Shown: positions 28,290 through 51,339 of the stretch, in pieces
Numbering within the stretch: position 1 is the stretch's first letter
Layout of the letters: each line of letters begins with the position of its first letter
Source: an uncultured Thermotogae bacterium
GTDB lineage: Bacteria; Bipolaricaulota; Bipolaricaulia; RBG-16-55-9; DRXL01
DNA: 64,000 nt
Assembly (NCBI GenBank): GCA_964473325.1
Contig: CAYYOG010000001.1
Coordinates: 133,694 to 197,693, forward strand
Direction: 5' to 3'
Program-made: the position numbers and the translations under genes
The notes under the pieces: generated by a model
Told to the model about the DNA's origin: nothing
What the model saw: only the letters and a program-made list of their open reading frames with translations
Databases searched by the model: none

Positions 28290-28298
28290 AATACCCTC

Positions 28299-31239: not shown

Positions 31240-31265
31240 CGCCCGCCATTATACCCAGTCTTGCT

Positions 31266-31706
31266 TCACGATTGCACTTCGGAGGTACAATAAGGACAAC
31301 GCGTCGCGCGGATAGAGATCACTGAGAAGCAATAGGGGCACTCTCTCGTAGTCGGGGCCGCAGGCGCGGGCTCAGGCGGTCGTCTTAAGCGATTGATCTG
31401 TCGAATCACTAAGAAGACCGCGAACGCCACGATCATAAAGTCGAGCACCGTATTGAGAAAGACCCCATAGTTGATCGTCGGAGCTCCCGCAGCCTTAGCC
31501 TCAGCCAGTGATGCATAGGGCTCTCCAGAGAGATTGATAAACAGATTCGAGAAATCGACTCTCCCCAAGAGCAACCCAATAGGTGGCATGAGAATATCGT
31601 TGACGAACGAGCTGACGATCTTGCCGAAGGCCACACCAATGATGATCCCGACGGCCATGTCCAGCACGTTGCCGCGCATCGCGAACTCTTTGAACTCCTT
31701 GAGCAT
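31266..31706 (-). CDS. mscL: Large-conductance mechanosensitive channel MscL with a C-terminal CPYC...CPYC zinc-ribbon-like tail
   Basis: [31 protein letters not shown], the MscL TM1 signature. A GGAGG ribosome-binding site is present. The C-terminus ends [19 protein letters not shown]. Confidence 0.8.
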
Positions 31707-31777
31707 AGCGACCTCCTCAGATATAAGATAGGGTGAGTGTAGAAAAAGTTCCACAGAGCTGTCAAATAGTGACGCGA

Positions 31778-31806
31778 TTGACAGAGCGCAAAGCTTGGGA
31801 TAAACT
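31778..31806 (+). promoter_or_regulatory. Putative sigma70 promoter for tRNA-Ser(GGA)
   Basis: TTGACA (31778-83), a 17-nt spacer, then TAAACT (31801-06). Lies about 15 nt upstream of the tRNA 5' end. Confidence 0.45.
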
Positions 31807-31820
31807 TTTATTGACAATCT

Positions 31821-31985
<165 letters not shown>

Positions 31986-32118
31986 TCGGCTCGCTGCGGA
32001 GCGGCGGCGCAGGCCGTCAAACCCCGCCAGGCCCGGAAGGGAGCAACGGTAAGATGTCTCCTGCGGGCGCCGTTTCTGGAGCGGGCCGGCCCGAGTTGAT
32101 TTCCTAAAAGGAGGACCT

Positions 32119-35289: not shown

Positions 35290-35293
35290 AAAG

Positions 35294-35299
35294 TATAAT
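35294..35299 (+). promoter_or_regulatory. Consensus -10 box (TATAAT) upstream of tlyA
   Basis: TATAAT lies 30 nt upstream of the ATG at 35329, in the 39-nt divergent gap. Confidence 0.4.
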
Positions 35300-35328
35300 G
35301 AGCTAGCGCAGGTGATTCAAACAAGACC

Positions 35329-36123
35329 ATGACGAAGCAGCGCCTTGATCTTCTGCTTACAGATCGCGGGCTGTTCAATTCGCGCGCCCAAGCGCAGCGT
35401 GCTATAGCTGCAGGGCTGGTACTCGTCAACGGGCAGATTATAGACAAACCCGGCGCTCAAGTGCCCGTCGATGCCCACATCGAAGTTAAAGAGAAATCGC
35501 GCTATGTCAGCCAGGGTGGCCTCAAGCTCGAACATGCGCTTCGGGTCTTTCACATAGACGTCACGGATAAGATCTGTCTTGATGTCGGTGCTTCGACTGG
35601 AGGGTTCACAGACTGTCTGCTCCAGCACGGCGCAAAAAGAGTCTATGCTGTGGACGTCGGCAAGGGACAACTCGATTGGAAGCTGCGCACCGATCACAGA
35701 GTCATTGTTTTAGAGGAGATCAACGCTCGGTATTTGAAGCCCGAACAGATCGGCGAACTTGTCGACATCGCGACTGTGGACGTCTCGTTCATCTCGCTCA
35801 AGTTAATATTGCCCCCGCTGAAAGAGATCATGAAACCCAAGAGCGATCTGATATGTCTGGTCAAGCCCCAGTTTGAAGCGGGCCGAGAGCACGTCCGGCG
35901 CGGCGGGGTCGTCAAAGATTATTTCACTCATCAGCGCGTCTTGGAAGACCTCGCGCGCTTCGTACAAGATCAGTTGCAGCTCTCGGTCGTGAACGCGACG
36001 CACTCCTCCATCAGAGGCCCCGCAGGGAATATCGAGTTTTTTATGCACATCGTGAGCGAGCCACACCAGAGCGCGCCCATAGACTGGGCACGATTGGTCG
36101 AACACGCCCATAAAGAATTATAA
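35329..36123 (+). CDS. tlyA: TlyA-family rRNA 2'-O-methyltransferase (S4 domain plus FtsJ-like methyltransferase)
   Basis: MTKQRLDLLLTDRGLF... S4 domain. VGASTGGFTD SAM motif. Confidence 0.85.
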   Translation: MTKQRLDLLLTDRGLFNSRAQAQRAIAAGLVLVNGQIIDKPGAQVPVDAHIEVKEKSRYVSQGGLKLEHALRVFHIDVTDKICLDVGASTGGFTDCLLQHGAKRVYAVDVGKGQLDWKLRTDHRVIVLEEINARYLKPEQIGELVDIATVDVSFISLKLILPPLKEIMKPKSDLICLVKPQFEAGREHVRRGGVVKDYFTHQRVLEDLARFVQDQLQLSVVNATHSSIRGPAGNIEFFMHIVSEPHQSAPIDWARLVEHAHKEL

Positions 36124-36130
36124 TAGCTCT

Positions 36131-36820
36131 ATGGCCCAACTCGTCTTCGACATCGAAACCGTAGGACTGCCCCTCGAGTCTTTCGATGAAGCTCAGAGAG
36201 AATATCTTTTGAGATGGGCCGAGCGCGAGGAGACCCCGGAGCGCCAAGAGCGCAAGCGCGAAGAGCTGATCGCTCAGTTCAATCTTTACCCGTTCACGGC
36301 CCAGGTCGTCGCCATCGCGATGCTCAACGTTGAAAGCCATAAAGGGCGTGTCTACTATCAAGCCCCAACCAAAGAGTCCTGGCGCTCCGAAGATACTCTC
36401 ATTGAATACGAGTCGGGCAGCGAAGCAGAGATTCTGAAGAGATTCTGGGAGGATGTGCGCCCTTACAAACAGCTCATCACGTTCAATGGCCGGGGCTTCG
36501 ACTGCCCATTTCTGATGCTGCGCTCGGCAATTTTGGCCATCAAGCCCAGTCGAAATTTGATGCTCTCGCGCTTCGACAGCGAGCACATAGATCTCTTAGA
36601 GCAATTGACGTTCCACGGCGTGACCCGACGGTTCAGCCTTGATTTTTACTGTCGAGCCTTCGGTATCCCCAGTCCCAAGGGGCGCCTCTCCGGGCCGCAG
36701 ATGAACCAGCTCTTCGCTGAGGGCAAATACCGTGAGATCGCCCAGTACTGTTTCGATGACGTGCGCGCCACGGCTGAACTCTACCAACGTTGGCGCGAAT
36801 TCTTAAGCTTTGAAGGCTAA
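36131..36820 (+). CDS. RNase H-like 3'-5' exonuclease (PolB exonuclease-domain-like / YprB family)
   Basis: FDIETVGL Exo I motif and later acidic motifs. Confidence 0.6.
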   Translation: MAQLVFDIETVGLPLESFDEAQREYLLRWAEREETPERQERKREELIAQFNLYPFTAQVVAIAMLNVESHKGRVYYQAPTKESWRSEDTLIEYESGSEAEILKRFWEDVRPYKQLITFNGRGFDCPFLMLRSAILAIKPSRNLMLSRFDSEHIDLLEQLTFHGVTRRFSLDFYCRAFGIPSPKGRLSGPQMNQLFAEGKYREIAQYCFDDVRATAELYQRWREFLSFEG

Positions 36821-36833
36821 GCGAACTCACAGA

Positions 36834-37445
36834 ATGCTGATAGTTTGTCTTGCCGGAGGCATTGCTACGGGCAAGAGCCTCGTCGCCCAAGAAGCCGCGA
36901 AACTGCCCGGCGTCACTGTTATTGATGCCGACAAGGTCGCCTGGGAGACGTACAGAAAAGATACGGAGACATACCGAAAGCTTGTCGCACGCTTCGGCGA
37001 ACAGATTCTCTCAGAGGGCGGCGAGATCGATCGAAAAACGCTGGGCGCGCTCGTCTTCTCCAATTCAGAAGCGCGGGAATTTGTGAATGCAACGGTGCAC
37101 CCGGCTGTCCAAGAAGCGCTGGAGAAGCTCGCCGAGGCGCATCGTGTTCAGGGCACCAAGCTCTTAGTCATAGAAGCAGCTCTTGTGCTCGAATCGCCCT
37201 ATGTCCGGCGCGATTTTTTTGATTATATTATTTTGGTGAGCGCCCCGCGCGAAGCGCAAATTCAAAGACTGATCGAGCGCAGCGGGCTCTCTCCTGACGA
37301 GGCGCGCCGGCGCGTCGAAGCCCAGACGCCCTCAGAACTGCTCGCTCCCAAAGCCGACTTCGTGCTCGACACATCGGGTACTATCGAGGAGACACGCGAG
37401 CGCGCGCGAGCGCTCTTTAGGGAACTGCTTGCCTGCGCTGGGTGA
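36834..37445 (+). CDS. coaE: Dephospho-CoA kinase
   Basis: MLIVCLAGGIATGKSLV P-loop. CoaE fold. Confidence 0.85.
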   Translation: MLIVCLAGGIATGKSLVAQEAAKLPGVTVIDADKVAWETYRKDTETYRKLVARFGEQILSEGGEIDRKTLGALVFSNSEAREFVNATVHPAVQEALEKLAEAHRVQGTKLLVIEAALVLESPYVRRDFFDYIILVSAPREAQIQRLIERSGLSPDEARRRVEAQTPSELLAPKADFVLDTSGTIEETRERARALFRELLACAG

Positions 37446-37740
37446 TCTCCGTTACACGCCCATGTCCCCAGGAAAAGTTCTCGGTTCACGCTCCTGAGGC
37501 AGACATGGCTCCTCTCTTGTGCTGTGAGGGACTCTTATACTGGAGCCATCTTCTAAACATTGGCGGAAACCTCCGATCAGCAGCCCCCTGGCTCACGCAC
37601 GGCCGGGGGGTCGCTCTTTTTAAGTGAGAAGCCGAAGGCCTCACAGTAACCTGTGTCACTATCTTGAGTGCCGGACTTCGTCACGACAGAGGGCCGTTCT
37701 CTTTTGAGTTGAGCCTCGCTTCACATAAGATGACCACGCT

Positions 37741-38355
37741 ATGAAGAAGACCAAGCGGGCACAACGCGGGAGCGTCTTGTTGCTCATCATCGCGATGATG
37801 GTGCTTATGGGGTGGTCCGTCTCCCAGCCCATGCCCCAGCAGCCCTCCGCCTTGCCGCCTGGGACCGCTCCAGCGAAACTCACCGAGCCTGCGCCATCCC
37901 CCCACCATGACAGTGGGAATGGCTCGGACTTCATCGACCCGCAGCGCTTCCCCGCTCGACCCCCGGCCCATAGATCGGCGCAGAGTTCCAAGACGATAGA
38001 GACTCCCGCTATCATTCCTGGGCGCGCCGTCCACCTTGACCCCACAGGCTCACTCACCGTTCCGCTCTCGGGACGGATTGAGTTCGTCGTAACCCTCACA
38101 AATCTTGAGAGAGAGGACTGGCAAGTCATCGGCGAGCTCTACGTCACCAAAGGCGATGGCAGAACCGAAAAGCTCTTCGGCCCACGGGCCATCCGCCTTG
38201 GGCCCACCCAGCGCCTGCGCCTGCCTGTAGGCTTTACTGCCAACCCCAAGCGCTTTCCCCCTGGCCCCACCCAATTCCTCGCCGTTCTCAAAGACCAGAG
38301 CGGCAAAGCCATCGACCAGGCGATCATCACGTTTAACATCAAGCCTGGACAGTGA
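37741..38355 (+). CDS. Hypothetical secreted protein
   Basis: Signal peptide LLLIIAMMVLMGWSVS. Pro-rich linker then a beta-rich domain. Confidence 0.5.
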   Translation: MKKTKRAQRGSVLLLIIAMMVLMGWSVSQPMPQQPSALPPGTAPAKLTEPAPSPHHDSGNGSDFIDPQRFPARPPAHRSAQSSKTIETPAIIPGRAVHLDPTGSLTVPLSGRIEFVVTLTNLEREDWQVIGELYVTKGDGRTEKLFGPRAIRLGPTQRLRLPVGFTANPKRFPPGPTQFLAVLKDQSGKAIDQAIITFNIKPGQ

Positions 38356-38507
38356 CGCCCAGCCCTAACCAAATCCCATCACGTCCAAAAACAATCCAGA
38401 TCAGTTCATTCCCCGAAATTTGATGAAGAGCAGTTTTTCATATGTCATAAATCATTGAGTTTCTCGCTCTAGCGACGCTAGGATGGACTTGACGGGAGCT
38501 GATCCTC

Positions 38508-39077
38508 ATGATCGAAGTGCGGTTTCACGGACGGGGCGGGCAAGGAGCCGTCGTCGCCTCGGAGATCTTAGCGACAGCCCTTTTCAAAGAGGGCAAATTT
38601 GTTCAAGCTTTTCCAGCCTTTGGGGTGGAGCGTCGCGGCGCACCCGTGATGGCCTTCTTACGCTTCGATGACACCCCTATCCGACGACGGTGCCAGATCT
38701 ACGAGCCCGATCACGTCGTCGTCCTCGACCCGACGCTCTTATTAGCCGTAGACGTCACGGCAGGGCTGAAGTCCCACGGAACTATTCTCATCAATAGTGA
38801 CTCTCCTCCAGAAAGCTTTACGGCTCTCCAAAAATTTTTAGTTGCGACCGTGCCCGCGGGGGAGATCGCCGTGGCGCATAAGCTGGGCACGCGAACAAAT
38901 CCCATCGTCAACACTGCGATCTTAGGGGCGTTCGCGCGCCTGACGGGCTTTGTCAGCTTAGAGGCACTGCTCGATGCAATTGCTGAAAAGATTCCGGAGC
39001 GCCAGCGCGAGCGCAACCAAGCCGCCGCCCGCACAGCATACGAAGCCGTGAAGATCATGGAAAGGAGCACCCTATGA
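38508..39077 (+). CDS. porG: Pyruvate/2-oxoacid:ferredoxin oxidoreductase gamma subunit
   Basis: MIEVRFHGRGGQGAVVASEILA... PorG signature. Confidence 0.9.
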   Translation: MIEVRFHGRGGQGAVVASEILATALFKEGKFVQAFPAFGVERRGAPVMAFLRFDDTPIRRRCQIYEPDHVVVLDPTLLLAVDVTAGLKSHGTILINSDSPPESFTALQKFLVATVPAGEIAVAHKLGTRTNPIVNTAILGAFARLTGFVSLEALLDAIAEKIPERQRERNQAAARTAYEAVKIMERSTL

Positions 39078-40729
39078 AAAAGCCCATCGTCTTCACCAGC
39101 GAGCAAGAGATGCCGCCCATGGCCGTCTCGCTCGCCGATATGGGGCACAACCGCACAGGGAGCTGGCGGTATCTGCGCCCGATCTATAGCGAAAAGATTG
39201 CGCCATGCAAGAATGCGTGTCCCGTGGGCAACGATATCCCGAGAATTCTCTCTTTAGTCTCCCAAGGGCGTTATGAAGACGCCTGGCGGCTCTTCCGAGA
39301 GACTTCGCCCTTGCCAGGGGTCTGCGGGAGGGTCTGTTATCACCCGTGCGAGAGCTTTTGCAACCGAAAGAACTTCGACGAAGCGCTCTCGATCGCTGCA
39401 GTAGAGCGCTTCGTCGCCGACGCGTGCTTCGATCTGGAGGACAAGATCCCAGAGCGCCCGAAGCGATCCGAGAAGATCGCGATCGTCGGCTCTGGACCAG
39501 CGGGGCTGACGTGCGCGTACTTCTTGGCCAAAGACGGCTACGCCGTGACGGTCTTCGAAGCAGCCAGCCAGCCGGGTGGGATGTTGCGCCTGGGGATTCC
39601 GGCGTATCGTCTCCCTAGAGAAGTCTTAAATCGCGAGATTGATCTCATCGCCCGCTGGGGGGTCGAGTTCCGCACCAACACGAAGATCGGGCAAGATATA
39701 TCTATCGAGAAGCTCTGGGACTCTCACGACGCCGTCTTCATCGCGACCGGGGCCCACAGCGGACGCGCTCTGAACATCCCAGGCGAAGAGTTTGCTACCC
39801 AAGGGCTTGAGTTTCTCAAAGCCGTCAATGCTGGGAAGACTGTCACTTTAGGCAAGCAGGTGCTCATCATCGGTGGTGGGAACACCGCGATGGACTGCGC
39901 CCGCACCGCGCTGAGACTTGGCGCACAGCCCATCGTCGTCTACCGCCGCACGCGTGAAGAGATGCCCGCTATTGCTGAAGAGATCGAAGAAGCCGAGCAC
40001 GAGGGGACGCGGTTTGAATTCCTCGCCGCGCCCATAGCTATTCGCAAGCTCAACGGGAAGCTTGAAGTGCAGTGTATTCGTATGAAGCTTGGTGAGCCCG
40101 ATGCGAGTGGGCGCCGCCGCCCCGTGCCTATCCCCGGCTCGGATTTCATCATGTACGCCGATACTATGCTGAAAGCCGTGGGCGAGGAGCCCGAGCTGAC
40201 GTTCTTGTCGGAGCACGTGGAGACCAGCGAGGGCATTGTGATCGAGCGTGCTCAGGGGATACTCGAGCGCGCGGGGATCTTCATCGGCGGTGACGCCCAG
40301 ACCGGTCCCAGCACCGTTACACAAGCAATGCGCTCCGGCAAAGAGACTGCTCAAGCTATCACGCGATTCTTACGCGGTGAACGAAAGCCCAAAGCAGTCA
40401 AGCTCGAAGAGGCCCTGCGCGTGAACTTCAATTACTTCACCCACACGCCCAGGGTCCCCACGCCCCAGCTTCCAGTCTCGGAGAGAACCTCGAACTTCTC
40501 GGAGACCAAGGGCGCGATCTCGGCCGAGCAAGCGCGTGCCGAAGCGAACCGTTGCTTCTCCTGTGGGGTCTGCAATAACTGCGATAACTGCTGGGTCTTC
40601 TGCCCCGATGCGGCTATCGTACGCATGAATGGCACCTATGAAGTAAACTACGATTTCTGCAAAGGCTGCGGGGTCTGCGTTGAAGAATGCCCCCGCAACG
40701 TGATCTCGCTCGTCGAGGAGGAGCTATGA
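39074..40729 (+). CDS. Fusion protein of a GltD-like NAD(P)H-binding FeS flavoprotein (N-terminal) and a PorD-type 2x[4Fe-4S] delta subunit (C-terminal)
   Basis: 551 aa. N-terminus has SPLPGVCGRVCYHPCESFC, GSGPAGL (FAD) and GGGNTAMDCAR (NAD(P)). C-terminus has CFSCGVCNNCDNCWVFCP...CKGCGVCVEECP. ATGA overlap with porG, and its stop overlaps the porA start. Confidence 0.8.
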   Translation: MKKPIVFTSEQEMPPMAVSLADMGHNRTGSWRYLRPIYSEKIAPCKNACPVGNDIPRILSLVSQGRYEDAWRLFRETSPLPGVCGRVCYHPCESFCNRKNFDEALSIAAVERFVADACFDLEDKIPERPKRSEKIAIVGSGPAGLTCAYFLAKDGYAVTVFEAASQPGGMLRLGIPAYRLPREVLNREIDLIARWGVEFRTNTKIGQDISIEKLWDSHDAVFIATGAHSGRALNIPGEEFATQGLEFLKAVNAGKTVTLGKQVLIIGGGNTAMDCARTALRLGAQPIVVYRRTREEMPAIAEEIEEAEHEGTRFEFLAAPIAIRKLNGKLEVQCIRMKLGEPDASGRRRPVPIPGSDFIMYADTMLKAVGEEPELTFLSEHVETSEGIVIERAQGILERAGIFIGGDAQTGPSTVTQAMRSGKETAQAITRFLRGERKPKAVKLEEALRVNFNYFTHTPRVPTPQLPVSERTSNFSETKGAISAEQARAEANRCFSCGVCNNCDNCWVFCPDAAIVRMNGTYEVNYDFCKGCGVCVEECPRNVISLVEEEL

Positions 40730-41898
40730 CGCCCACGCTCACGGGAACCAAGAAAGTCGTCACAGGGAATCACGCCGTCTCGTACGGAGCGATGCTCGCG
40801 CGCGTCCAAGTGATCTCAGCATATCCCATTACGCCGCAGACGCAGGTCGTTGAGCTCTTGAGCGAATTCTGCGCCAATGGGACGCTGCGCGCCAAATTCA
40901 TCAAAGTCGAGTCAGAACACTCAGCGATGGCCGCGCTCATCGGCGCAGCGAGCGCTGGAGCAAGAACGTTTACAGCGACGAGTGCCCACGGCTTGGCGCT
41001 CATGCACGAGATGCTCCACTGGGCCGCCGGAGCGAGACTGCCCATCGTGATGGCCGATATCAACCGAGCGATGGGCCCGCCGTGGTCCGTCTGGACCGAT
41101 CAGAATGACAGTCTCTCTCAGCGCGATGTCGGCTGGATGCAGATCTACTGCGAAAGCAACCAAGAAGTCTTGGACACCGTCATTCAAGCATACAAAGTCG
41201 CTGAGAGAGTCTTGATGCCCGCAATGTTGATATTAGACGCGTTCGTGCTCTCACACACCGCTGAACAGATCGAGATTCCCGATCAAGCACTCGTCGATCA
41301 GTATCTGCCGCCGTATCAGCCCATATATAAGCTGGACGTGAACGACCCGCGCTCGTTTGGGGCGCTTGCCCCACCTGATGTTTATATGGAGCTGCGCTAC
41401 AAGATGCACCAAGCGATGGAAGAAGCACTCACGGAGTGGGCCCGCGCAGACGAAGAATACTATGAGCTTTTCGGGCGACGCTATGGGCTGATCGAACCCT
41501 ATGGCGCTGACGACGCTGATCTGATCTTAGTGACGTCAGGAACAGTCACGAGCACGGCGCGGGAAGTGATCGACGCACTGCGCGCAGAGGGCCGCCGGGT
41601 CGGCTTGCTCAAGATGCGAGTCTTTAGACCATTCCCGGCTCAGCTTGTACGCGAGGCGTTAGCGAACGCTCAGAAAGTCGCGGTCCTAGACAGAAATATT
41701 AGCTTTGGGATGGGCGGAATTTTTGCTCAGGAGATCAAGTCGGCGCTCTATAACACACACGATCGCCCGCCGATCTTCGGGTTTGTCGCCGGCTTGGGTG
41801 GACGAGACATCACCCCGAAAGTTATCAGAGAGATCATCGAGTACGCTGAGAGCCATGACGAGCCAGAAGATCTGATCTGGGTGGGGGTGAAACGATGA
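40725..41898 (+). CDS. porA: Pyruvate/2-oxoacid:ferredoxin oxidoreductase alpha subunit
   Basis: MTPTLTGTKKVVTGNHAVSYGAM...YPITPQT. Confidence 0.9.
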
Positions 41899-42785
41899 GA
41901 AATTTTATGCTGCCAGATGAGGAACTGATGGGCTCTGGGCACTTGGGGTGTCAAGGGTGCGGCGGCGCTCTGGCGATGCGCTACGCTCTCAAGGCCGCAG
42001 GCAGCAACACGATCGTCGTCATTCCCGCGTGCTGCTGGACGATCATCGCTGGGCCGTTCCCGTACACGTCTTTGAAAGTCCCAGTGCTGCACACGGCGTT
42101 CGAGACGGCGGCCGTGGCAGCGTCGGGCGTACGCGCCGCGCTCGATATCCAGGGCGACACTGAGACAACCGTGCTCGCTTGGGCTGGCGACGGCGGCACG
42201 TTTGATATCGGGATACAGTCGCTCTCCGGGGCTGCTGAGCGAAACGAAAATATTATCTATATTTGTTACGACAACGAAGCGTATATGAACACGGGGATCC
42301 AGCGCAGCGGCGCCACGCCCTTCCTCGCCTGGACGACGACAACCCCAGAGAAAACCCCAAAGACCGAGCCGAAAAAAGACATCATGGCGATCATGGTCGC
42401 TCACCGTATTCCATATGCTGCCACGGCGACGATTGCCTATCCGGATGACTTCATCCGAAAAGTTCAGAAAGCCAAGAGCATCTACGGCACAAAATTTTTG
42501 CACGTGCTGGCACCGTGCCCGCCGGGTTGGAAAGCCCCCTCAGAATGGGCGATCAAGCTCTCACGATTGGCTGTCCAGACTAGGGTCTTCCCACTCTACG
42601 AAGTCGAAGATGGAAAGAGATATATATTGAACGAGCCTAAGGACAGTACAGCGCTCCCCGTGAGCGAGTATCTCAAGCTCCAAGGGCGGTTTAGCCATCT
42701 GACGGAGAAGGATATCCAAGAGATCCAGCATAGCATAGATGCGAGATGGCAGCAGCTGATGTGCCAAGTTCGTGAGTCGTCATGA
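41895..42785 (+). CDS. porB: Pyruvate/2-oxoacid:ferredoxin oxidoreductase beta subunit (TPP-binding)
   Basis: GCQGCG...GDGG...YDNEAYMNTG TPP/FeS motifs. Confidence 0.9.
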   Translation: MRNFMLPDEELMGSGHLGCQGCGGALAMRYALKAAGSNTIVVIPACCWTIIAGPFPYTSLKVPVLHTAFETAAVAASGVRAALDIQGDTETTVLAWAGDGGTFDIGIQSLSGAAERNENIIYICYDNEAYMNTGIQRSGATPFLAWTTTTPEKTPKTEPKKDIMAIMVAHRIPYAATATIAYPDDFIRKVQKAKSIYGTKFLHVLAPCPPGWKAPSEWAIKLSRLAVQTRVFPLYEVEDGKRYILNEPKDSTALPVSEYLKLQGRFSHLTEKDIQEIQHSIDARWQQLMCQVRESS

Positions 42786-45766
42786 GCGCTCAAGCGATCT
42801 TAATGTCGGGCAACGAAGCGATTGCCCGCGGGGCATGGGAGGCGGGCGCGCGTGTCGGCTGCGGCTATCCTGGTACCCCCAGCACTGAGATCTTAGAGGC
42901 CCTGGCACAATATCCCGAAGTAGATTGCGAATGGTCCACGAACGAAAAAGTCGCGCTCGAAGTCGCGGTCGGTGCAGCCCTCGCTGGCGGAAGAGCCATC
43001 GCCACGATGAAGCACGTGGGGCTGAACGTCGCCGCTGATCCGTTCTTCTCTGTCGCATATATGGGGGTCAACGCGGGCTTGGTCGTCGTCTCCGCCGACG
43101 ACCCCGGGATGCATTCGTCCCAGAACGAGCAAGATAACAGATTCTTAGCTCGTGCAGCTCGTGTTCCACTCTTAGAACCATCGACGGCACAAGAGTGCAA
43201 AGATTTCGCTCTCGCAGCGTTCGAGATCTCTGAGCGCTACGACACCCCAGTCTTGCTGAGAACTACGACGCGCATCTCTCACGGCAAGGGCTTAGTGACG
43301 CTGGGGGAGCGTCGGGAAATTCCGAGAAAACCCTATCGCAAGGACGTCCAAAAGAACGTCGTGCTCCCTGCGCACGGGCGCGCCCGACACGTCCTCATAG
43401 AGACCCAGCGCATCCCTGCTTTAGAAAAAGAAGCTGAGCGCTGGGCCCAGATCTTTGCAGGCTCCGACGACTTAGCGATCATCACGTCTGGGGCAGCGTT
43501 TCTCTACACCCGCGAAGCCTTCCCCAAGGCGACTATTTTAAAGCTGGGCATGACGCATCCCCTGCCCAGAGAACTAATCAAAAGATTCTGTGAGGGCAAG
43601 AAGCGCATAGTCGTTCTGGAAGAGCTTGAGCCCTATCTCACTGAGCAAGTGCGTGCGTTAGGGATCGCTGCGGAAGAGATTCCCCTCCCGCGTTTTGGCG
43701 AACTGTCGGTCGGGCTGGTGCGGCAGGCGGTGGAACGCGCCCGCGACGGGGCCACCCCTCCCCCCGTCACCCTCCCGCTCCTGCCGCCACGCCCACCGAT
43801 CCTGTGCGCCGGCTGCATGCACCGCGGGATCTTCTACGTGCTCAAACAATTAGAAGCTATCGTTTCAGGAGACATCGGCTGCTACACGCTCGGTGCGCTC
43901 GCCCCCCTCGACGCCATGGACACGTGCATGAACATGGGCGCGTCGCTCTCGATGGCCCACGGCATGGCCAAGATCTTCTCCGAAGAAGAACGAAAAAGAC
44001 TTGTCGCGGTCATCGGTGACTCGACGTTCTATCACTCCGGCGTCCCAGCTTTGATAGATATTCTGTATAACCGAGGTCAGACTGTTACTATTATCTTGGA
44101 CAACCACACCACGGCCATGACCGGCCATCAAGAGCACCCCGGCACCGGGCACACTATTAAGGGCGAACCCGCCCCCGTGATCGAACTTGAGTCGCTCGCC
44201 AGAGGTCTAGGGATCAAGCACGTGCAGCGCGTCGATCCTTACGATCTCTTGACAGCCTGGCGCACTATAGATACAGCTCTTCATCGCCGAGAGCCGTCGG
44301 TGATTATCGCCGACGCGCCCTGTGTGCTCAAGGAGAAGCGTCGCTTCGGCGAGATCGTCTCTGTAGATCACAAGAAGTGCACAGAGTGCTTTGCCTGCAC
44401 GGAGCTGGGCTGTCCTGCTATCGAAATTCGAGACGGGCATATTGAAATCAATAAATTGCTCTGTATCGCGTGCACGCATTGCCAACAAGTTTGCGCCGAC
44501 TGCAACGCAGGGATTGACATCCCCCAAGTCCTGGAACTTGTCCATCAGAAGCGCTACGCGGACGCATTCAGAGTCGTAATGCGCGCTAACCCCTTCCCCG
44601 CAGTGGCTGGGCGGGTCTGCCCGCACCCGTGCGATCATGAAGTGAACGCACTCGGCTGGCCTCAAGAGAGACTCTACGCCGAGCGATACCCGGATTTGGT
44701 CAAAGAATTTGCGACGCCGGGCCATCCCGCGAAGCTCTCCGTGCGCGACGTCGAGCGATTTTTGGGTGACTATGGGATCGAGAATTTTTCTGGCGCGGAG
44801 TTTGCACCCATTACAGAACGCCCAGAGAAGGTCGCTATTATCGGCTCTGGACCAGCAGGGCTGTCAGCAGCGTTCTATCTGCGGAGACGCGGCTTTCGCG
44901 TAACAGTCTTGGAAGCATTTGAAAAGCCCGGCGGTATGATGCGCTATGGCATCCCAGCATTTCGTTTAAACAAAGAGATCTTAGATCGCGAGATCGATAG
45001 ACTGTATATGATGGGCGTCGAAATTCGCTGCAATGTGACAGTAGGACGCGACGTGAGCTTCGCAGAACTCCAGAAAGAGTACGATGCAGTCGTCATCGCT
45101 GTGGGGGACTCAGCCCCACAGGAACTCGAACTTGAGGGCACCAGCGAAGTACAAGAAGGGCTGCTCTACGGTGTAGAATTTCTCCGGCGCGTCAACCGCG
45201 GACAGCTCGTGAAAGTTGGGCGCAAAGTTGCTGTCATCGGCGGAGGCAATACAGCTATAGACTGCGCGCGCTCGGCCCAGCGCCTGGGAGCGGACGTGAC
45301 AGTATACTATCGCCGCACCGCCCAAGAGATGCCCGCGATCCGCGATGAAATCGATGAAGCGATCTTAGAAGGGGTGCGCTTTGAGTTCCAGACAAACCCC
45401 ATTAGAGTCAAAGCGAAGGGCGGTCGTGTCTGCGGACTGGAGCTCATCCGGATGCAGCCAGGCCCGCTTGATAAAGACGGACGCCGTCGGCCCGTACCCA
45501 TCCCCGAGAGTGAATTTCACACCGACGTCGACACGGTGATCTTAGCCATCGGCGAGCGAGCCGATCTAGAGTTTCTTAAGGAGACAAAAGTACTATTCGC
45601 TGAGAAGATTCAGGCGACGTTCACAGGAGTAGCGTCGCAACCAGGGATCTTCGCCTGCGGGGATGTCGCATTTGGGTATGGCACCGTAACGCAGAGCATC
45701 GCAACGGGGCGGCGCGTCGCCAGCACGGTCACCGCGTATCTCCAGCGCAAAAGCACAAAAAAATGA
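42782..45766 (+). CDS. Fusion protein of an indolepyruvate:ferredoxin oxidoreductase alpha subunit (TPP and 2x[4Fe-4S] domains) and a C-terminal GltD-like NAD(P)H-binding FeS flavoprotein
   Basis: 994 aa. Residues 1 to about 600 are IorA (GYPGTPSTEILE, IGDSTFYHSG, CTECFACTELGCP, CIACTHCQQVC). Residues from about 600 to 994 are GltD-like (NPFPAVAGRVCPHPCDHE, GSGPAGL, GGGNTAIDCAR, FACGD). ATGA overlaps at both ends. Confidence 0.85.
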   Translation: MSAQAILMSGNEAIARGAWEAGARVGCGYPGTPSTEILEALAQYPEVDCEWSTNEKVALEVAVGAALAGGRAIATMKHVGLNVAADPFFSVAYMGVNAGLVVVSADDPGMHSSQNEQDNRFLARAARVPLLEPSTAQECKDFALAAFEISERYDTPVLLRTTTRISHGKGLVTLGERREIPRKPYRKDVQKNVVLPAHGRARHVLIETQRIPALEKEAERWAQIFAGSDDLAIITSGAAFLYTREAFPKATILKLGMTHPLPRELIKRFCEGKKRIVVLEELEPYLTEQVRALGIAAEEIPLPRFGELSVGLVRQAVERARDGATPPPVTLPLLPPRPPILCAGCMHRGIFYVLKQLEAIVSGDIGCYTLGALAPLDAMDTCMNMGASLSMAHGMAKIFSEEERKRLVAVIGDSTFYHSGVPALIDILYNRGQTVTIILDNHTTAMTGHQEHPGTGHTIKGEPAPVIELESLARGLGIKHVQRVDPYDLLTAWRTIDTALHRREPSVIIADAPCVLKEKRRFGEIVSVDHKKCTECFACTELGCPAIEIRDGHIEINKLLCIACTHCQQVCADCNAGIDIPQVLELVHQKRYADAFRVVMRANPFPAVAGRVCPHPCDHEVNALGWPQERLYAERYPDLVKEFATPGHPAKLSVRDVERFLGDYGIENFSGAEFAPITERPEKVAIIGSGPAGLSAAFYLRRRGFRVTVLEAFEKPGGMMRYGIPAFRLNKEILDREIDRLYMMGVEIRCNVTVGRDVSFAELQKEYDAVVIAVGDSAPQELELEGTSEVQEGLLYGVEFLRRVNRGQLVKVGRKVAVIGGGNTAIDCARSAQRLGADVTVYYRRTAQEMPAIRDEIDEAILEGVRFEFQTNPIRVKAKGGRVCGLELIRMQPGPLDKDGRRRPVPIPESEFHTDVDTVILAIGERADLEFLKETKVLFAEKIQATFTGVASQPGIFACGDVAFGYGTVTQSIATGRRVASTVTAYLQRKSTKK

Positions 45767-46374
45767 ACACATCCAGCGTTACAAATATTATCGTAGTTGG
45801 GGTAGGTGGACAGGGGTCTGTGCTCGCAGGGCAGATCATTGCGCGCGCAGCTGTACTCGCCGGGCTGTCTGTAGCGGCTTCAGAGGTGCACGGCATGGCC
45901 CAGCGCGGCGGTTCGGTCTTCTCCACCGTGCGCTACGGCAAAGACGTGCTCTCATCTGCCGTGCCCGAAGGCGCTGCCGATGTCCTGCTCGCCTTTGAAA
46001 AACTCGAAGCCCTACGCTACCTGAACCATCTCAGAGTCGACGGCTTGGCGTTAGTGAACGATCAGCGCATTGTGCCCAGTGTCGAATCGCTCAAGCTCGC
46101 GCCATATCCCGATGACAAAACTATAGAAGGGACGCTGCGCCGTCGCACAAAGTCCGTCATGATCGTGCCCGCCTTAGAAATCGCGCAAAGGCTGGGCAAT
46201 CCTGCGCTCACCAACACCGTCATGCTCGGCGCGCTCTCCCAGTTTCTCAATCTCCCTCAGGACGCATGGCGCCGCGCCGTCACTGAACTTGTCCCGCCCA
46301 AGACCGTCGAGCTCAATCTCGTAGCGTTTGACGAGGGGCTCAGCTGGGCCCAGCGCGCCTGTATCGCTCTGTAA
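45763..46374 (+). CDS. iorB: Indolepyruvate:ferredoxin oxidoreductase beta subunit
   Basis: IIVVGVGGQGSVLAGQIIA...HGMAQRGG. Confidence 0.85.
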   Translation: MNTSSVTNIIVVGVGGQGSVLAGQIIARAAVLAGLSVAASEVHGMAQRGGSVFSTVRYGKDVLSSAVPEGAADVLLAFEKLEALRYLNHLRVDGLALVNDQRIVPSVESLKLAPYPDDKTIEGTLRRRTKSVMIVPALEIAQRLGNPALTNTVMLGALSQFLNLPQDAWRRAVTELVPPKTVELNLVAFDEGLSWAQRACIAL

Positions 46375-46434
46375 CTGGACGCGAGCCCCCTAATGTGTTA
46401 TATTGAGGGACACCGTGTGAAAGGAGGCCATAGT

Positions 46435-47046
46435 ATGGCGTTTTCTTTACCGCCGTTGCCGTATCCATACGACGCTCTAGAGCCGCACATTGACCAGCTG
46501 ACGATGGAGATCCATCACACCAAGCACCACGCAGGATATGTGAACAATCTCAACAAAGCGTTGGAGTCTGCGCCAGAGTTGGCCAGCAGGTCTCTAGAGG
46601 AGCTGCTAGCCAACAATTGCGCGATTGTTCCAGAGAAGATCAAAACAGCGGTGCGCAATCACGGCGGCGGACATATCAATCATTCGTTCTTCTGGGAGAT
46701 CATGGGGCCCAATGCCGGTGGTCAGCCCTCTGGAAAGCTCGCCGAGGCGATCACACAGACTTTCGGGAGCTTCGAGAAATTCAAGGAGAGATTTACAGAA
46801 GCAGCGTTAGGGCGCTTTGGCTCCGGCTGGGCCTGGCTCGTGCTCACCCCAGAGAGAAAGCTCGAAGTCTACTCGACGGCTAACCAAGATAGCCCTCTAA
46901 TGGAAGGCAAGATCCCCATCTTAGGGATCGACGTTTGGGAGCACGCGTATTATCTCAAATATCAGAACCGCCGCGCCGACTATGTCCAGGCGTGGTGGAA
47001 CGTCGTGAACTGGGCTGCCGTCGAAAAACGCTTCACTTCCATTTGA
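46435..47046 (+). CDS. Fe/Mn superoxide dismutase
   Basis: [32 protein letters not shown]...DVWEHAYY metal ligands. AGGAGG ribosome-binding site. An extended -10 (TGTTATATT) lies upstream. Confidence 0.9.
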
Positions 47047-47572
47047 TGGTACAGCCCATGGGCTGCGTCTCTTTTAAGTCAGGCTCCCTGCCGGCGAGCA
47101 CGGCGTCCAGGGCATCTTTGAGATAGTGTTTGGTCACTTTATTGGGATCTTGATAGTTGTCATCAATCGTGCCGTGATAGCGCAGCTTCATCGCTGAGTC
47201 GAAGAGAAAGATCTCTGGGGTGCGCTGGGCGCCGTAGGCTCTCGCGATCTGTTGGGTCTCGTCGTACAGATACGGGAAGGGATAGCCCTTCTCTTTCGCT
47301 CTTTTAATCATGTTGTCGAAGCTGTCTTCAGGGTATTTCACAGGGTCATTGGAGTTGATGACGAGAAATTGCACGCCCTTGGGTTCGTACTCTTTGGCGA
47401 GCGCGATCATGCGAGCTTCATACGCCTTCACATATGGGCAATGATTGCAGCTGAAGATCACAGCGACGGCCTTTTTGTTCTTATAATCTGAGAGCTTATA
47501 GGTCTTGCCGTCGACACCTTTAAGCTGGAAGTCTGGGGCTTGGCTACCGTACTTGAGCATAGAGAAAATCAC
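47033..47572 (-). CDS. Thioredoxin-fold redoxin (AhpC/TSA/TlpA-like thiol-disulfide oxidoreductase)
   Basis: FSCNHCPY CxxC motif. Convergent with sod, with a 14-nt overlap. Confidence 0.7.
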
Positions 47573-47740
47573 CTCAATGGGGCAATTATACTCAATAGAA
47601 TCACGGAGAGCACTGAAAGGCTCACGGGTTACACGAAAACCGCTCTATTTCAGTGATTTCTGCGACTCTCTTGCGTGTGTTCCGCGATTCACAAGCTCTC
47701 CTGGACGAATGTGCTCATCATCGCTACAATTATGGCAATG

Positions 47741-47983
47741 ATGAAGCCCATAATTACGATTGAATATTGTGACGAATGTATGTATCTGAAGCCGGCCCTG
47801 GAGGCCGCGCACAAAATCCTCGAGAGCTATGCAGACAGGGTCGAAGCCGTGATGCTCAAGCCTGGACACGACGGGGTCTTCCGCGTCACCGCTCATGATG
47901 TTCTTATTATTCAGATGGGCGACGAGGGCCTGCCCAACGCCGAAAGAGTCGCTCACGCTGTCGGAGAGTTCTTAGAAACTTAA
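47741..47983 (+). CDS. Rdx/SelW-family thioredoxin-fold protein (Cys form)
   Basis: MKPIITIEYCDEC...LKPG..GVF.V.....LI architecture. Confidence 0.55.
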   Translation: MKPIITIEYCDECMYLKPALEAAHKILESYADRVEAVMLKPGHDGVFRVTAHDVLIIQMGDEGLPNAERVAHAVGEFLET

Positions 47984-47989
47984 ATCACC

Positions 47990-48523
47990 ATGAAGACCAA
48001 ACGCGGCTTGTTTCTAGGACGCTTCCAGCCCTATCACAACGGCCATCACGCCGTCATCAAACAGATCTTTGAAAGCCGTGAGATCAATGAGCTGATCATT
48101 GCTATTGGCTCAGCTCAAGAGAGCCATACGCTCAAAGACCCCTTCACCGCCGGCGAACGAATGATGATGATCACCAAAGCACTCGAAGACTTAAAGCCCC
48201 CCATCACGACGTATGTCTTGCCCATCGAAGACATTGAGCGCAATTCGCTCTATGTCGCCCATATTCGCAGCTTGACGCCGCCATTTGAGATCGTCTACTC
48301 TAATAACTCTTTAGTGCAACGGCTCTTTGAGGAGCGTGGCATCACCGTGCGCCCGCTGCCCTATGTCGAACGCGCCCACTGGGACGGCACGAAGATCCGC
48401 GAACTGATGCTCCACAGCGACGAATGGAAATCCTACGTGCCCTCCGCGGTTGCCCGCGTGATCGAAGAGATTGGTGGCGTGGAGCGCCTCCGACACATCC
48501 ACCAGACCGATAAGCACTCTTAA
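47990..48523 (+). CDS. nadM: Nicotinamide-nucleotide adenylyltransferase, archaeal NadM type
   Basis: GLFLGRFQPYHNGH (H/T)xGH nucleotidyltransferase motif. About 170 aa. Confidence 0.8.
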   Translation: MKTKRGLFLGRFQPYHNGHHAVIKQIFESREINELIIAIGSAQESHTLKDPFTAGERMMMITKALEDLKPPITTYVLPIEDIERNSLYVAHIRSLTPPFEIVYSNNSLVQRLFEERGITVRPLPYVERAHWDGTKIRELMLHSDEWKSYVPSAVARVIEEIGGVERLRHIHQTDKHS

Positions 48524-48526
48524 GTT

Positions 48527-49297
48527 ATGACGCTCAACATTCCCGTTCGAGAGAACAAGAAACTCGAAGCCATCGTCGCCCGCGTCAACGAACACGTCAC
48601 GCTCAATACATACTGGTACTGCTCGAACATCAACGCCATTGACAGACTAGGAATCAATGATCACGGTCCGGTGCACATCAGAATCGTCGCCAATCTTGCC
48701 CTCAAGATTTTACGAATGCTTGTCGAAGCAGGTGTGCAGCCCAGTGTCGAGAAAGACCATAAGCTGACCAAAGACGATGCCGAGGTCATTGTCGTCTTAG
48801 CGGCGTGCTTGCACGATATTGGGCACATCGTCCATCGCACGCATCATGAGCCGTTCTCAGTGGCGTTAGCTGCAGACTTGCTGCCCGATCTTTTGAGAGA
48901 TATCTATCCCGAGCGCGAGCGCGCTGTTATTACGTCAGAGATCTTACACGCGGTCTACGCGCACGAGACGGAAGTCGAGCCGCTCACTGTCGAGGCCGGG
49001 GTTTTGAAGATCGCTGATGCTTTAGATATGGAAGAAGGGCGCGCGCGCATTCCATTTCAGTCCGGCTCGATGACGATCCATGCCGTCTCGGCGCTGGCTA
49101 TAGAAGACGTGCAGCTGCGCAAGGGCGAGAAGCGTCCCATCTGCATTGCGATAAAAATGTCCAACTCGGCAGGCATTTTTCAGATAGACAATCTGCTGAA
49201 AGAGAAACTGAAACACTCTGGGCTGGCGGAGTACTTTGAGATTCGCGCCGAGATCACGGGGGAAGAGAAGAAGCTCATCGAGCGCTACGAGCTCTGA
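48527..49297 (+). CDS. HD-domain metal-dependent phosphohydrolase
   Basis: H...HD...D ligands (LHDIGH). Confidence 0.7.
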   Translation: MTLNIPVRENKKLEAIVARVNEHVTLNTYWYCSNINAIDRLGINDHGPVHIRIVANLALKILRMLVEAGVQPSVEKDHKLTKDDAEVIVVLAACLHDIGHIVHRTHHEPFSVALAADLLPDLLRDIYPERERAVITSEILHAVYAHETEVEPLTVEAGVLKIADALDMEEGRARIPFQSGSMTIHAVSALAIEDVQLRKGEKRPICIAIKMSNSAGIFQIDNLLKEKLKHSGLAEYFEIRAEITGEEKKLIERYEL

Positions 49298-49938
49298 TCG
49301 ATCTTGGATAGCCCCATATCTAAAAGCTCTGGCGCTAAGATTCCCCCAGAGACGACCATCTTCAGCGCCTCGTCCACAGGGATCGAGGTGAACTGCACGT
49401 TCTCTTTGGGAAGAAACTGTAAATACCCCGACGTTGGGTTGGGCGTCGTCGGCACATAGACCCGCACCCATTCGCGCCCGTCGCTCGTCTGGATCGTGCC
49501 CACTTGGAAGGCTATCGTCCAAAGGCCCTTAGAGGGGAATTCAATCAAAACGACGCGCTGAAATGATTTCTCTTGCGACTGGGAAAGCGTGCGCACCACT
49601 TGCCGGGCAGCGTTGTAGATGCTGTTGACGATAGGCATCTTCTGGAGCACGGATTCCCAGAACTCTAAAAATCTTCGTCCCAACATATTCGTTGCCAAGA
49701 TGCCCGTCACATAAAGCGCCAGCAACGTCAGCACCAAGCCGACGCCAGAGGGTAATTCCCATCTCAGGGTATAGCGGAGCATGGCGTTGAGCAAGGAGCG
49801 CAGCGGGCCGTCTAGAAGATTATAGAGCAACTGCAAGACCCAAATAGTGAGTATGAGGGGAACGACGAAGACGACGCCCGCCAGCATTCGTGAGTAGATA
49901 TGATGCCAAATCCGCCGTCCAAGCGATGGGGTGTTCAT
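49285..49938 (-). CDS. DUF502-family membrane protein
   Basis: Two N-terminal TM helices and a conserved DUF502 core. Confidence 0.6.
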   Translation of the reverse strand: MNTPSLGRRIWHHIYSRMLAGVVFVVPLILTIWVLQLLYNLLDGPLRSLLNAMLRYTLRWELPSGVGLVLTLLALYVTGILATNMLGRRFLEFWESVLQKMPIVNSIYNAARQVVRTLSQSQEKSFQRVVLIEFPSKGLWTIAFQVGTIQTSDGREWVRVYVPTTPNPTSGYLQFLPKENVQFTSIPVDEALKMVVSGGILAPELLDMGLSKIDQSS

Positions 49939-49965
49939 AGCTCTGTTATTTTACCGAGAAGTGAC

Positions 49966-51339
49966 CTAGAAGATCACCCAGAGCAGATACAGGAAGACCG
50001 CGGCAGGGATCGTCGCGGCGAGCGTGAACGGCAGCCCGATTATCCCAAATTCCCGAAAGCCCACAATATGCCCGCGCTGGCGCAACTGCCCCGCTCCGAC
50101 AATATTCGCCGACGCCCCAATGGGCGTGATATTCCCTCCTAAGCTCGCGGCTATGAGTAGCCCAAAGAGCAACGCTTCTTGCCCTGCCCCCGGAGCAGCG
50201 AGCTTCATCACCAGGGGGACCATCGCCATCAAGTACGGGATATTGTCGACAAACGCCGACACGAGCATAGACAGAAAGATAATGACAATGTACGAGACGA
50301 GCAGGTTCGCGCCAAGCACCGACTTGAGCCACTCCGCAAAAAGATCGATCCAACCCTTCTTGACAAGTGTTCCGACAAGCGTGAAGACCCCTATGAGGAA
50401 GAGTGCCGAGTCCCAGTCGAGTCTCTTCAAGATCTGCCAAGGCGTATCGGGGAAGCGCTCGCGGTCGTTGCGCCCCAAAAACTCGTACCAGATCAGTCCT
50501 CCCAGCCCCCAGATCATGCAAATCGCACCCAAAAGATCATGTGCTTGAAGCGATGATGCCATCGCGAGCGCGAGCATCATCGTCGCCAAAAAGACCGTCG
50601 GCCCCCAACTGATCACTTTCTCTTCAGCGACCAATTCGACTTTTCGATGGAGATGCCGAAACGCCCAATAGAGCACGGGCAACGATGTCAGAAACCCAAA
50701 CTGAATCGCGAAAAAGACCCCAAGCCCTTGGCTTTTGTACCAGAAGAAGTCATTGAATGAAGCGTTCGCGTACTCAGCAAAGATCATGCTCGCGGGATCG
50801 CCGATCAACGTCGCCGTCCCTTGAAGATTCGATGAGACGGTGACCCCAATAATTAACGGGACGGGGCTGGTCTTGAGTTTTTCAGCGAGCGCGAACGCAA
50901 TCGGCGCGAAGATCAGAACAACAGCGACGTTCTCAGCGAAGATTGAGAGAAATCCCGAGAACGCGCAGACCTTGACCATCGCCCAGCAGACACTGCGCGA
51001 TCTGTTCACTAAAAGTTCGGCGACGTAATGCGGCACGCGCGACCAGGTAAATAAGTCAGCTAAGATGAGCGTGCCCACGAAGATCCCCATCACGTTCCAA
51101 CTGATAAGCGATTCTTTGCCTCCTTCACCGAGGAAGACCAACGTCGGCGAGACGACGCCTGTGAGCATCAACACCAAGGCCCCCGCGCCAGCAACCCAGG
51201 CGCGATGCCTCGGGAACATCACAAAGAGCGCGTAAGCAAGGGCAAAGACCGCTAACGCTAGGAAGCTTTGCACAGTTGACCCCTCAGCGGTGCACGAAGA
51301 CCAGATAAGCCCCAAGGAAATAAACCATGAGAATAACAA
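49966..51339 (-). CDS. ArsB/NhaD/CitMHS-superfamily anion permease. The start is uncertain, since 56 nt overlap the upstream gene.
   Basis: 457 aa with about 12 TM helices. Confidence 0.65.
   Translation of the reverse strand: MLFSWFISLGLIWSSCTAEGSTVQSFLALAVFALAYALFVMFPRHRAWVAGAGALVLMLTGVVSPTLVFLGEGGKESLISWNVMGIFVGTLILADLFTWSRVPHYVAELLVNRSRSVCWAMVKVCAFSGFLSIFAENVAVVLIFAPIAFALAEKLKTSPVPLIIGVTVSSNLQGTATLIGDPASMIFAEYANASFNDFFWYKSQGLGVFFAIQFGFLTSLPVLYWAFRHLHRKVELVAEEKVISWGPTVFLATMMLALAMASSLQAHDLLGAICMIWGLGGLIWYEFLGRNDRERFPDTPWQILKRLDWDSALFLIGVFTLVGTLVKKGWIDLFAEWLKSVLGANLLVSYIVIIFLSMLVSAFVDNIPYLMAMVPLVMKLAAPGAGQEALLFGLLIAASLGGNITPIGASANIVGAGQLRQRGHIVGFREFGIIGLPFTLAATIPAAVFLYLLWVIF

Follow-up and report, generated by a model that had tools for sequence, protein, structure and literature searches.

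A conserved fusion of IorA with a GltD-like FAD/NAD(P)H module in Bipolaricaulota and other uncultured lineages

Indolepyruvate oxidoreductase (IOR) of the Pyrococcus furiosus type, IorAB (TIGR03336/TIGR03334), is a 2-oxoacid:ferredoxin oxidoreductase (OFOR) whose canonical IorA subunit hands its electrons to free ferredoxin and ends four to six residues past its last cysteine. GltD-like modules, as found in GltD, NfnB/NfnL, the N-terminal domain of dihydropyrimidine dehydrogenase (DPD), StnC, Nfn-ABC and AegA/YgfT/YgfK, have an established role as plug-in NAD(P)H ports and occur fused to many partners. OFOR chemistry linked to NAD(P)+ is also known: the pyruvate:NADP+ oxidoreductase (PNO) of Euglena and Cryptosporidium is an NADP+-linked 2-oxoacid oxidoreductase with a cytochrome-P450-reductase-type FMN/FAD domain, and the phenylglyoxylate:NAD+ oxidoreductase of Azoarcus, PadEFGHI, is reportedly a five-subunit enzyme. 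Here we describe a gene in which a complete IorA continues into a GltD-like module. It lies at 42782..45766 (+) of a 64,000-nucleotide stretch (the window) from an uncultured bacterium of the Bipolaricaulota (assembly GCA_964473325.1, contig CAYYOG010000001.1, positions 133,694 to 197,693). With PNO and Pad this fusion, iorA::gltD, shares the idea of coupling thiamine pyrophosphate (TPP)/Fe-S OFOR chemistry within the enzyme to an NAD(P)+-reducing flavin. No publication describing an IorA-GltD fusion, or a GltD module within a PorD subunit, was found in the open-access full-text literature. Both the components and the concept of linking an OFOR to NAD(P)+ are already known, and the IorA::GltD variant is undescribed in the literature searched.

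One reading frame encodes a complete IorA followed by a GltD-like module

The fusion gene is a single open reading frame (ORF) of 994 codons with no internal stop. Its IorA part, residues 7-572 (42800..44497, +), scores 676.9 bits against the NCBIfam IorA equivalog TIGR03336 (IOR_alpha; cutoff 650.9), the match spanning positions 4-591 of the 595 in the model. This part holds the TPP-binding domains, the cysteine set Cys342/345/367/514 and a ferredoxin domain with Cys533/536/539/544/561/564/567/571. The TPP domains, the eight ferredoxin-domain cysteines, the adjacent iorB gene and the equivalog score above cutoff are all shared with IorAB. The GltD/NfnB-like FAD/NAD(P)H module occupies residues ~561-993. 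Within it, Pfam Fer4_20 matches residues 564-618 over profile positions 24-82 of 113 only, and Pyr_redox_2 matches residues 683-976 (E 1.3e-36). The flavoprotein part of the tail, residues 683-994 (44828..45763, +), carries GSGPAG at 688-693, R728, GGGNTA at 820-825, YRR at 843-845 and Ile853. An architecture of complete IorA plus GltD-like module in one ORF is practically certain.

An earlier note, made from the sequence alone, had pointed to this architecture, and every motif that it quoted is present in the protein: CTECFACTELGCP at residues 533-545, CIACTHCQQVC at 561-571, NPFPAVAGRVCPHPCDHE at 603-620, GSGPAGL at 688-694 and GGGNTAIDCAR at 820-830. Its statement that IorA normally stops after two ferredoxin motifs agrees with 16 unfused IorA homologues, all of which end 4-6 residues past the cysteine equivalent to C571. 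Judged by these homologues, the extension is real and measures ~420 residues, instead of the ~390 of the note; relative to canonical IorA it would add one more [4Fe-4S] cluster, an FAD and an NAD(P)H site.

The note had also proposed a search for IorA proteins longer than 900 residues. In a search of 5.8 billion proteins, fused homologues of at least 900 residues formed about 98 clusters, at 48-91% identity and 98-100% query coverage. Those with named hosts belong to Candidatus Bipolaricaulota/Acetothermia and to Longimicrobiales, and other metagenome lineages carry the fusion too. One member, BAL56833.1 (UniRef100_H5SKZ7) from an uncultured Acetothermia bacterium, was deposited as "hypothetical conserved protein"; others are labeled "IorA" or "FAD-dependent oxidoreductase". 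The same operon with identical gene order was recovered from a Bipolaricaulota metagenome-assembled genome (MAG) and from a separate Logan read-set assembly, and more distant fusions (50-63% identity) sit on contigs of 0.5-1.7 Mb. GTDB representative genomes were additionally scanned with a junction alignment, one of whose derived patterns, SGPAGLxAAW, is generic to GltD-like proteins; this yielded at least two additional true fusions (L006, L026), in a Longimicrobiales MAG and a MAG labeled Candidatus Fraserbacteria. Apparent junction-spanning matches in L028 and L059 were also checked, and L059 was rejected as a fusion for its different, NuoG-like/Fd-GltD architecture.

With the tail alone as query, HMMER was run exhaustively against 1.84 billion cluster representatives; no unfused version of the tail subfamily was found, the close matches being the fusion family only. 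Four entries that by length could pass for free-standing tails (P0121-P0124) all start within the IorA ferredoxin domain and are thus fragments. The few split or truncated database members (P0121-P0124, P0276/P0277 and P0105) start or break within conserved fused sequence. P0105 (1147 residues) turns into low-complexity text past its CxxxC pair and is probably a frameshifted database entry.

These data bear on the possibility that the long ORF is an artefact, with iorA joined to a separate gltD-like gene by misassembly, by chimerism of the contig or by an overlooked frameshift or stop codon. No evidence in favor of such an artefact emerged. The reading frame is uninterrupted, GC content is continuous across the junction, the same fusion recurs across independent assemblies and phyla, no free-standing tail occurs among the 1.84 billion representatives, and the junction residues are invariant. 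A misassembly or missed stop near the junction, which the earlier note had named as fatal to its claim, is thereby excluded; we give an artefact essentially no chance, and the conservation data already refute it. With about 98 full-length homologues spread over 48-91% identity and an invariant junction, the fused state is under selection.

Iron-sulfur ligands at the junction

The junction spans residues 561-658 (44462..44755, +) and consists of CIACTHCQQVC, C574 followed by NAGIDIP, the pair C613-x3-C617, a tail-specific insertion and Glu658 in VERF. All 99 fused and 16 unfused IorA proteins compared have the eight ferredoxin-domain cysteines (533, 536, 539, 544, 561, 564, 567 and 571), and C342, C345, C367 and C514 are likewise invariant across alignment A2 (65 fused proteins). 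Past the last IorA cysteine, C574, C613 and C617 are found in 99 of 99 fused proteins and E658 in 97. Position 621 is V, T or I in 91/99 and cysteine in none; its equivalent is a cysteine following the CxxxC pair in StnC-type proteins and in a 551-residue GltD-bearing protein encoded in the same operon. The insertion after the CxxxC pair amounts to 22 residues by BLASTP (about residues 622-650). Finally, the tail ends directly after the flavoprotein domain, and the C-terminal CxxC segment present in the 551-residue protein is absent from it. P0098 and P0101 (912-918 residues) make up a subgroup that has a much shorter tail insertion and reads CLAGTD at the junction in place of CNAGID.

For the assignment of ligands we used published descriptions of related Fe-S domains (PMC9503767, PMC12221290, PMC8097209). 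In NfnL of P. furiosus (PfNfnL), C42 and C45 are the first two ligating cysteines, and E126 serves as ligand of the proximal cluster; in DPD, electrons pass from FAD to nFeS2, the cluster with a Gln/Glu ligand, and then to nFeS1. HMMER alignment places C561/C564 of the fusion on C42/C45, C574 on the last cysteine of the first NfnL motif, and E658 on E126. Between residues 533 and 658 there are 11 cysteines and one glutamate, enough for three clusters, where plain concatenation of the two proteins would give four. A two-cluster Fe-S domain would show one all-cysteine ligand set and one of three cysteines plus Glu/Gln, and the tail has a single set. C574, C613, C617 and E658 appear to be the ligands of one [4Fe-4S], the FAD-proximal cluster. 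One cluster appears to have been dropped on fusion, the last CxxCxxCxxxC of IorA standing in place of the first GltD cysteine motif, so that the IorA ferredoxin cluster would substitute for the distal cluster of GltD. The single ligand set in the tail, the lack of cysteine at position 621 and the missing C-terminal CxxC segment argue that in the fusion the ferredoxin domain of IorA and the Fe-S domain of GltD are merged rather than concatenated. The note's description of the tail as a full second electron-transfer/NAD(P)H module is partly borne out: a true IorA does carry a GltD-like FAD/NAD(P)H module at its C-terminus, but with one ligand set retained the tail is no full electron-transfer module.

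An AlphaFold2 model of the fusion, built from 65 fused sequences, has a mean predicted local distance difference test (pLDDT) of 89 and a predicted template modeling score of 0.83. Block-averaged pLDDT is 88-96 over residues 561-650, and the junction together with the tail-specific insertion is predicted to be ordered.

Flavin, electron flow and alternative readings

In the flavoprotein part, the GSGPAG and GGGNTA motifs are conserved among fused proteins, and Y843, R844 and R845 occur in 99, 99 and 98 of the 99. R845 aligns with PfNfnL Arg325, which is listed as an NADP(H)-contacting residue. Alignment to 5jca_L pairs the conserved R728 with R201, the N5-contacting arginine of NfnL, and Ile853, an isoleucine in 92/99 fused proteins, aligns with PfNfnL Arg333. 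A Foldseek search with the tail retrieved the Nfn-ABC large subunits 9n5u_A and 9bov_A, NfnL (5jca_L, template modeling (TM) score 0.77), StnC (8oh5_C), GltD and DPD; no IOR structure is present in the PDB. Among solved structures, the nearest homologues are GltD-like domains from large subunits of the Nfn-ABC/Stn type (9n5u_A, 9bov_A, 8oh5_C), and in StnC the FAD of this domain is experimentally non-bifurcating. With the described GltD/NfnB-like modules the tail shares the fold (TM 0.76-0.78), sequence similarity (phmmer E 5e-91 to 2e-48), the FAD/NADPH motifs and the Glu-ligated proximal cluster, whereas it keeps one of their two [4Fe-4S] ligand sets and adds the insertion after CxxxC.

Bifurcating NfnB proteins have been told apart from monofunctional ferredoxin:NADP+ oxidoreductases by three traits: a free N-terminus of extended length, the residue Arg333 and an nfnA gene located upstream (PMC12221290). 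The fusion module has none of the three. Its N-terminus is the IorA ferredoxin domain and not an extended free one, the gene upstream of the fusion is porB and not nfnA, and no PyrK/NfnA-like gene was detected by Pfam among the annotated genes from 33322 to 51339, nor in related loci L001-L005. Since the Arg333 position is held by Ile, no nfnA-like gene was found and the free N-terminus is replaced by IorA, we infer that the fused flavin does not bifurcate. The same lack of Arg333, of an nfnA neighbor and of the long NfnB N-terminus characterizes the Cac_0764-type monofunctional ferredoxin:NADP+ oxidoreductases (PMC12221290), and the tail is predicted to resemble them in being non-bifurcating and NADP(H)-linked. 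The Cac_0764-type enzymes differ, however, in being free proteins of ~410-460 residues with both clusters that use diffusible ferredoxin, whereas the fusion module is covalently wired and has no distal cluster.

We consider it fairly probable that the fusion and IorB together form a ferredoxin-independent arylpyruvate:NADP+ oxidoreductase (CoA-acylating) with a built-in NADP(H) port; here substrate range, NADP+ as acceptor, direction and the lack of bifurcation are what we infer, next to an architecture, a conservation and ligand counts that are observed. The fusion would supply the larger of the two subunits in a 2-oxoacid oxidoreductase (IorA::GltD + IorB) that decarboxylates an arylpyruvate on TPP. 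Two electrons would exit singly through the IorA [4Fe-4S] near the TPP (Cys342/345/367/514) and then the two ferredoxin-domain clusters, would next reach the single GltD-type cluster (Cys574, Cys613, Cys617, Glu658), and would gather on the FAD, from which NADP+ would receive them as a hydride. The overall conversion, arylpyruvate + CoA + NADP+ -> arylacetyl-CoA + CO2 + NADPH, would involve neither free ferredoxin nor electron bifurcation. By way of speculation, freeing OFOR chemistry from the ferredoxin pool could be useful to oxygen-exposed organisms: genes for a superoxide dismutase (SOD) and a peroxiredoxin adjoin the operon. Longimicrobiales belong to the Gemmatimonadota, which are largely aerobic.

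Several points weigh against this proposal. Substrate, nucleotide specificity and direction rest on homology for all members of the family, and the assignment of given cysteines to given clusters comes from alignment and published ligand descriptions. By textbook potentials, OFOR electrons lie at about -500 mV and NADP+ at -320 mV; a transfer between them wastes energy, which is unexpected for an energy-limited, acetogen-like member of the Bipolaricaulota. These potentials also make the reverse direction, NADPH-driven carboxylation, thermodynamically unfavorable. The ferredoxin-domain clusters may still be reachable by external ferredoxin, and the conserved R728, equivalent to R201, keeps bifurcation chemistry formally possible.

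The last two points each connect to an alternative. The enzyme could still be a ferredoxin-reducing IOR whose tail serves as its tethered ferredoxin:NADP+ oxidoreductase in the manner of the free-standing Cac_0764-type proteins, with the redox state setting how electrons are split between ferredoxin and NADPH. Free NfnB-like proteins without Arg333 and nfnA are indeed experimentally monofunctional ferredoxin:NADP+ oxidoreductases, working with pyruvate:ferredoxin oxidoreductase (PFOR) and ferredoxin, and all eight ferredoxin-domain cysteines of IorA are kept, so a ferredoxin docking region may persist. We nevertheless regard this reading as unlikely: the tail is without the distal surface-exposed cluster that is thought to be NfnB's ferredoxin contact, and the junction is rigid and confidently packed in the AlphaFold2 model, which favors intramolecular transfer.

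The fused FAD could, on the other hand, be bifurcating or confurcating as in NfnB, a new kind of site wired straight into a 2-oxoacid oxidoreductase. NADPH and a second redox partner would then drive the carboxylation of arylacetyl-CoA, or arylpyruvate oxidation would reduce both NADP+ and ferredoxin. In the former case, NADPH oxidation would push low-potential electrons into the IOR for reductive carboxylation of arylacetyl-CoA in aromatic amino-acid synthesis, and some high-potential acceptor would take up the others; the same coupling might also operate in reverse. The NfnB-like fold and FAD environment (TM 0.77 to 5jca_L) speak for such a site, as do the conserved R728 and the conserved glutamate ligand of the proximal cluster, which in NfnL keeps the two branches coupled. 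We give it little credence, given the isoleucine at the Arg333 position in 92/99 proteins, the failure to find an NfnA/PyrK-like partner nearby in any locus examined, the lack of an evident second electron exit and the non-bifurcating use of the domain in StnC, the nearest solved homologue with direct evidence. If it were true, both GltD-bearing OFORs of the operon would be redox-balancing machines and not simple dehydrogenases.

The operon, its second GltD module and wider implications

The fusion is the fifth of six plus-strand genes, porC-like to iorB, that are chained by ATGA start/stop overlaps. The first, at 38508..39077, encodes a porC-like gamma subunit of a POR/VOR-type 2-oxoacid oxidoreductase (Pfam POR 5.3e-42; PRK08534 226.4 bits, cutoff 225). 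It is followed by the gene for the 551-residue delta subunit, in which a GltD-like module is inserted in PorD (39074..40729; NF009410 569 bits, cutoff 516; Fer4_20, Pyr_redox_2, and PorD at residues 498-550). A porA/vorA-like alpha subunit comes next (40726..41898; POR_N 6.6e-75, PFOR_II 5.2e-32), its start placed at 40726 after a 390-residue orthologue (the mechanical ORF start is 40687), and then a porB/vorB-like beta subunit with TPP and [4Fe-4S] (41895..42785; TPP_enzyme_C 5.4e-20; NF008818 420 bits, cutoff 405). Downstream of the fusion, and translationally coupled to it, lies iorB, encoding the IOR beta subunit (45763..46374; Pfam POR 8.7e-43). The best NCBIfam matches of its product are all IorB models, with scores below their cutoffs (216.8 vs 237), and iorB is the next gene after the fusion in 7/7 loci examined. 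Only in Bipolaricaulota-like loci is the fusion accompanied by the POR/VOR-type cluster and that cluster's GltD-bearing delta subunit. We rejected an identification of the POR-type subunits as the NADH-dependent phenylglyoxylate dehydrogenase PadEFGHI, because their Pad equivalog scores fall far below cutoff (PadE 179 vs 300, PadG 318 vs 700, PadI 245 vs 700, PadF 48.6 vs 150).

In the 551-residue subunit, the GltD-like module sits between the N-terminal arm of PorD (GSWRYLRP, with W31/R32 invariant) and the PorD 2x[4Fe-4S] core. Fifteen cysteines and Glu111 are invariant in this protein and 116 relatives (n=117), ligands enough for four clusters. An extra CxxC follows the flavoprotein domain, in the segment EANRC494FSC497G, and aligns with the N-terminal RCLQC of Thermotoga maritima NfnB; the position of this segment indicates that the Fe-S ligands are circularly permuted relative to NfnB, as in StnC-type proteins. 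At the position of PfNfnL Arg333 the family has I, V, T or H. These GltD-in-PorD deltas (NF009410/PRK12771, 'NAD(P)-binding protein') form a large family found in several phyla under generic database names only. They resemble the fusion in being an OFOR subunit that bears a GltD-like module, and they share its operon; they differ in the PorD host, the inserted module, the permuted CxxC and the four clusters, and the IorA fusion is the rarer of the two.

Over ~420 residues, the operon's two GltD modules share 43% identity and 60% similarity; the earlier note, which called them distinct paralogues, had put the similarity at about 55%. Its further view, that an old duplication or separate acquisition and not an assembly repeat accounts for the pair, is borne out by an identity of 40-43% between tail and PorD-type module in every genome checked. 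That range, and the separate clade of the tails, led us to reject the tail as a recent duplicate of the 551-residue gene, and the two modules diverged long ago. In a neighbor-joining tree of 174 GltD-like modules, a comparison that the note had suggested, the 29 fused tails group together in a clade that contains no unfused module, with a bootstrap of only 29/47 for the strict fused-tail bipartition; the common junction, the lost cysteine and the insertion are further shared derived characters. The sister of the fused tails in this tree is a PorC-GltD fusion, and the best-scoring non-IorA matches of the tail are GltD-in-PorD proteins (45-46% identity). These relationships point to an older association of OFORs with the GltD module.

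Four proteins of 745-769 residues (P0154, P0310, P0362 and P0401) join PorC (gamma, PF01558) to a GltD-like module, and three of them additionally carry a ferredoxin-type domain (PF00037); this is a third mode of joining the module to an OFOR. Other partners of GltD-like modules are old yellow enzyme, xanthine-dehydrogenase FAD domains, NuoG/Fdh-like domains and polyferredoxins.

The surroundings of the fusion differ between lineages. In the Longimicrobiales-type locus L003 (positions 1-13845, carrying the relative P0040), the fusion and iorB are flanked by PaaX, two enoyl-CoA hydratases, MaoC, two genes each for HGD-D and BcrAD/BadFG proteins (benzoyl-CoA reductase or 2-hydroxyacyl-CoA dehydratase type), and acetate kinase with phosphotransacetylase (ack+pta). 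These surroundings look like an aromatic-acid catabolic island, and PaaX, the enoyl-CoA hydratases, BcrAD/HGD-D and ack+pta fit an arylacetyl-CoA product. In the window, a gene for an Fe/Mn superoxide dismutase (46393-47046, +) begins 18 nucleotides past iorB, and an AhpC/TSA peroxiredoxin gene (47033-47572, -) is convergent with it, the 3' ends overlapping by 14 nucleotides. Oxidative-stress genes thus adjoin oxygen-sensitive OFOR genes; the pair is kept in the related Bipolaricaulota MAG, which adds an Rdx-family gene.

Directly upstream of the operon is an ORF of 204 residues (37741-38355, +) with no Pfam match, and a 210-residue gene, likewise without a Pfam match, occupies the same place in L001 and L002. 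A 655-residue protein made almost wholly of WD40 repeats (33322-35289, -; E 1.5e-54) has a counterpart in the same place in the related Bipolaricaulota MAG. Farther away, the window holds a molybdenum/tungsten cofactor (Moco) riboswitch (25231-25400, -; 65.6 bits, gathering score 36) that lies upstream of ORF 24164-25303 on the minus strand, a loose group of six tRNA genes (21783-31910, +) comprising tRNA-Ser (TGA, GCT, CGA, GGA) and tRNA-Arg (CCG, GCG), and after these a small signal recognition particle RNA (31990-32088, +).

For specialists, the points of interest are the putative cluster-sharing splice, which illustrates how two Fe-S domains may be joined via a common cluster position, and the presence of what would be two NADPH-ported OFORs in a single operon. 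A compact CoA-acylating, NADPH-generating decarboxylase, if active, would also be of some biotechnological interest. The far larger and likewise uncharacterized GltD-in-PorD family suggests that NAD(P)-linked OFORs may be widespread and overlooked. OFORs are usually assumed to be ferredoxin dependent, and an NADP(H) port in the catalytic subunit would alter genome-based reconstructions of electron flow for Bipolaricaulota, Longimicrobiales and other uncultured lineages: if the proposed function is true, 2-oxoacids derived from amino acids would give NADPH directly, and not reduced ferredoxin.

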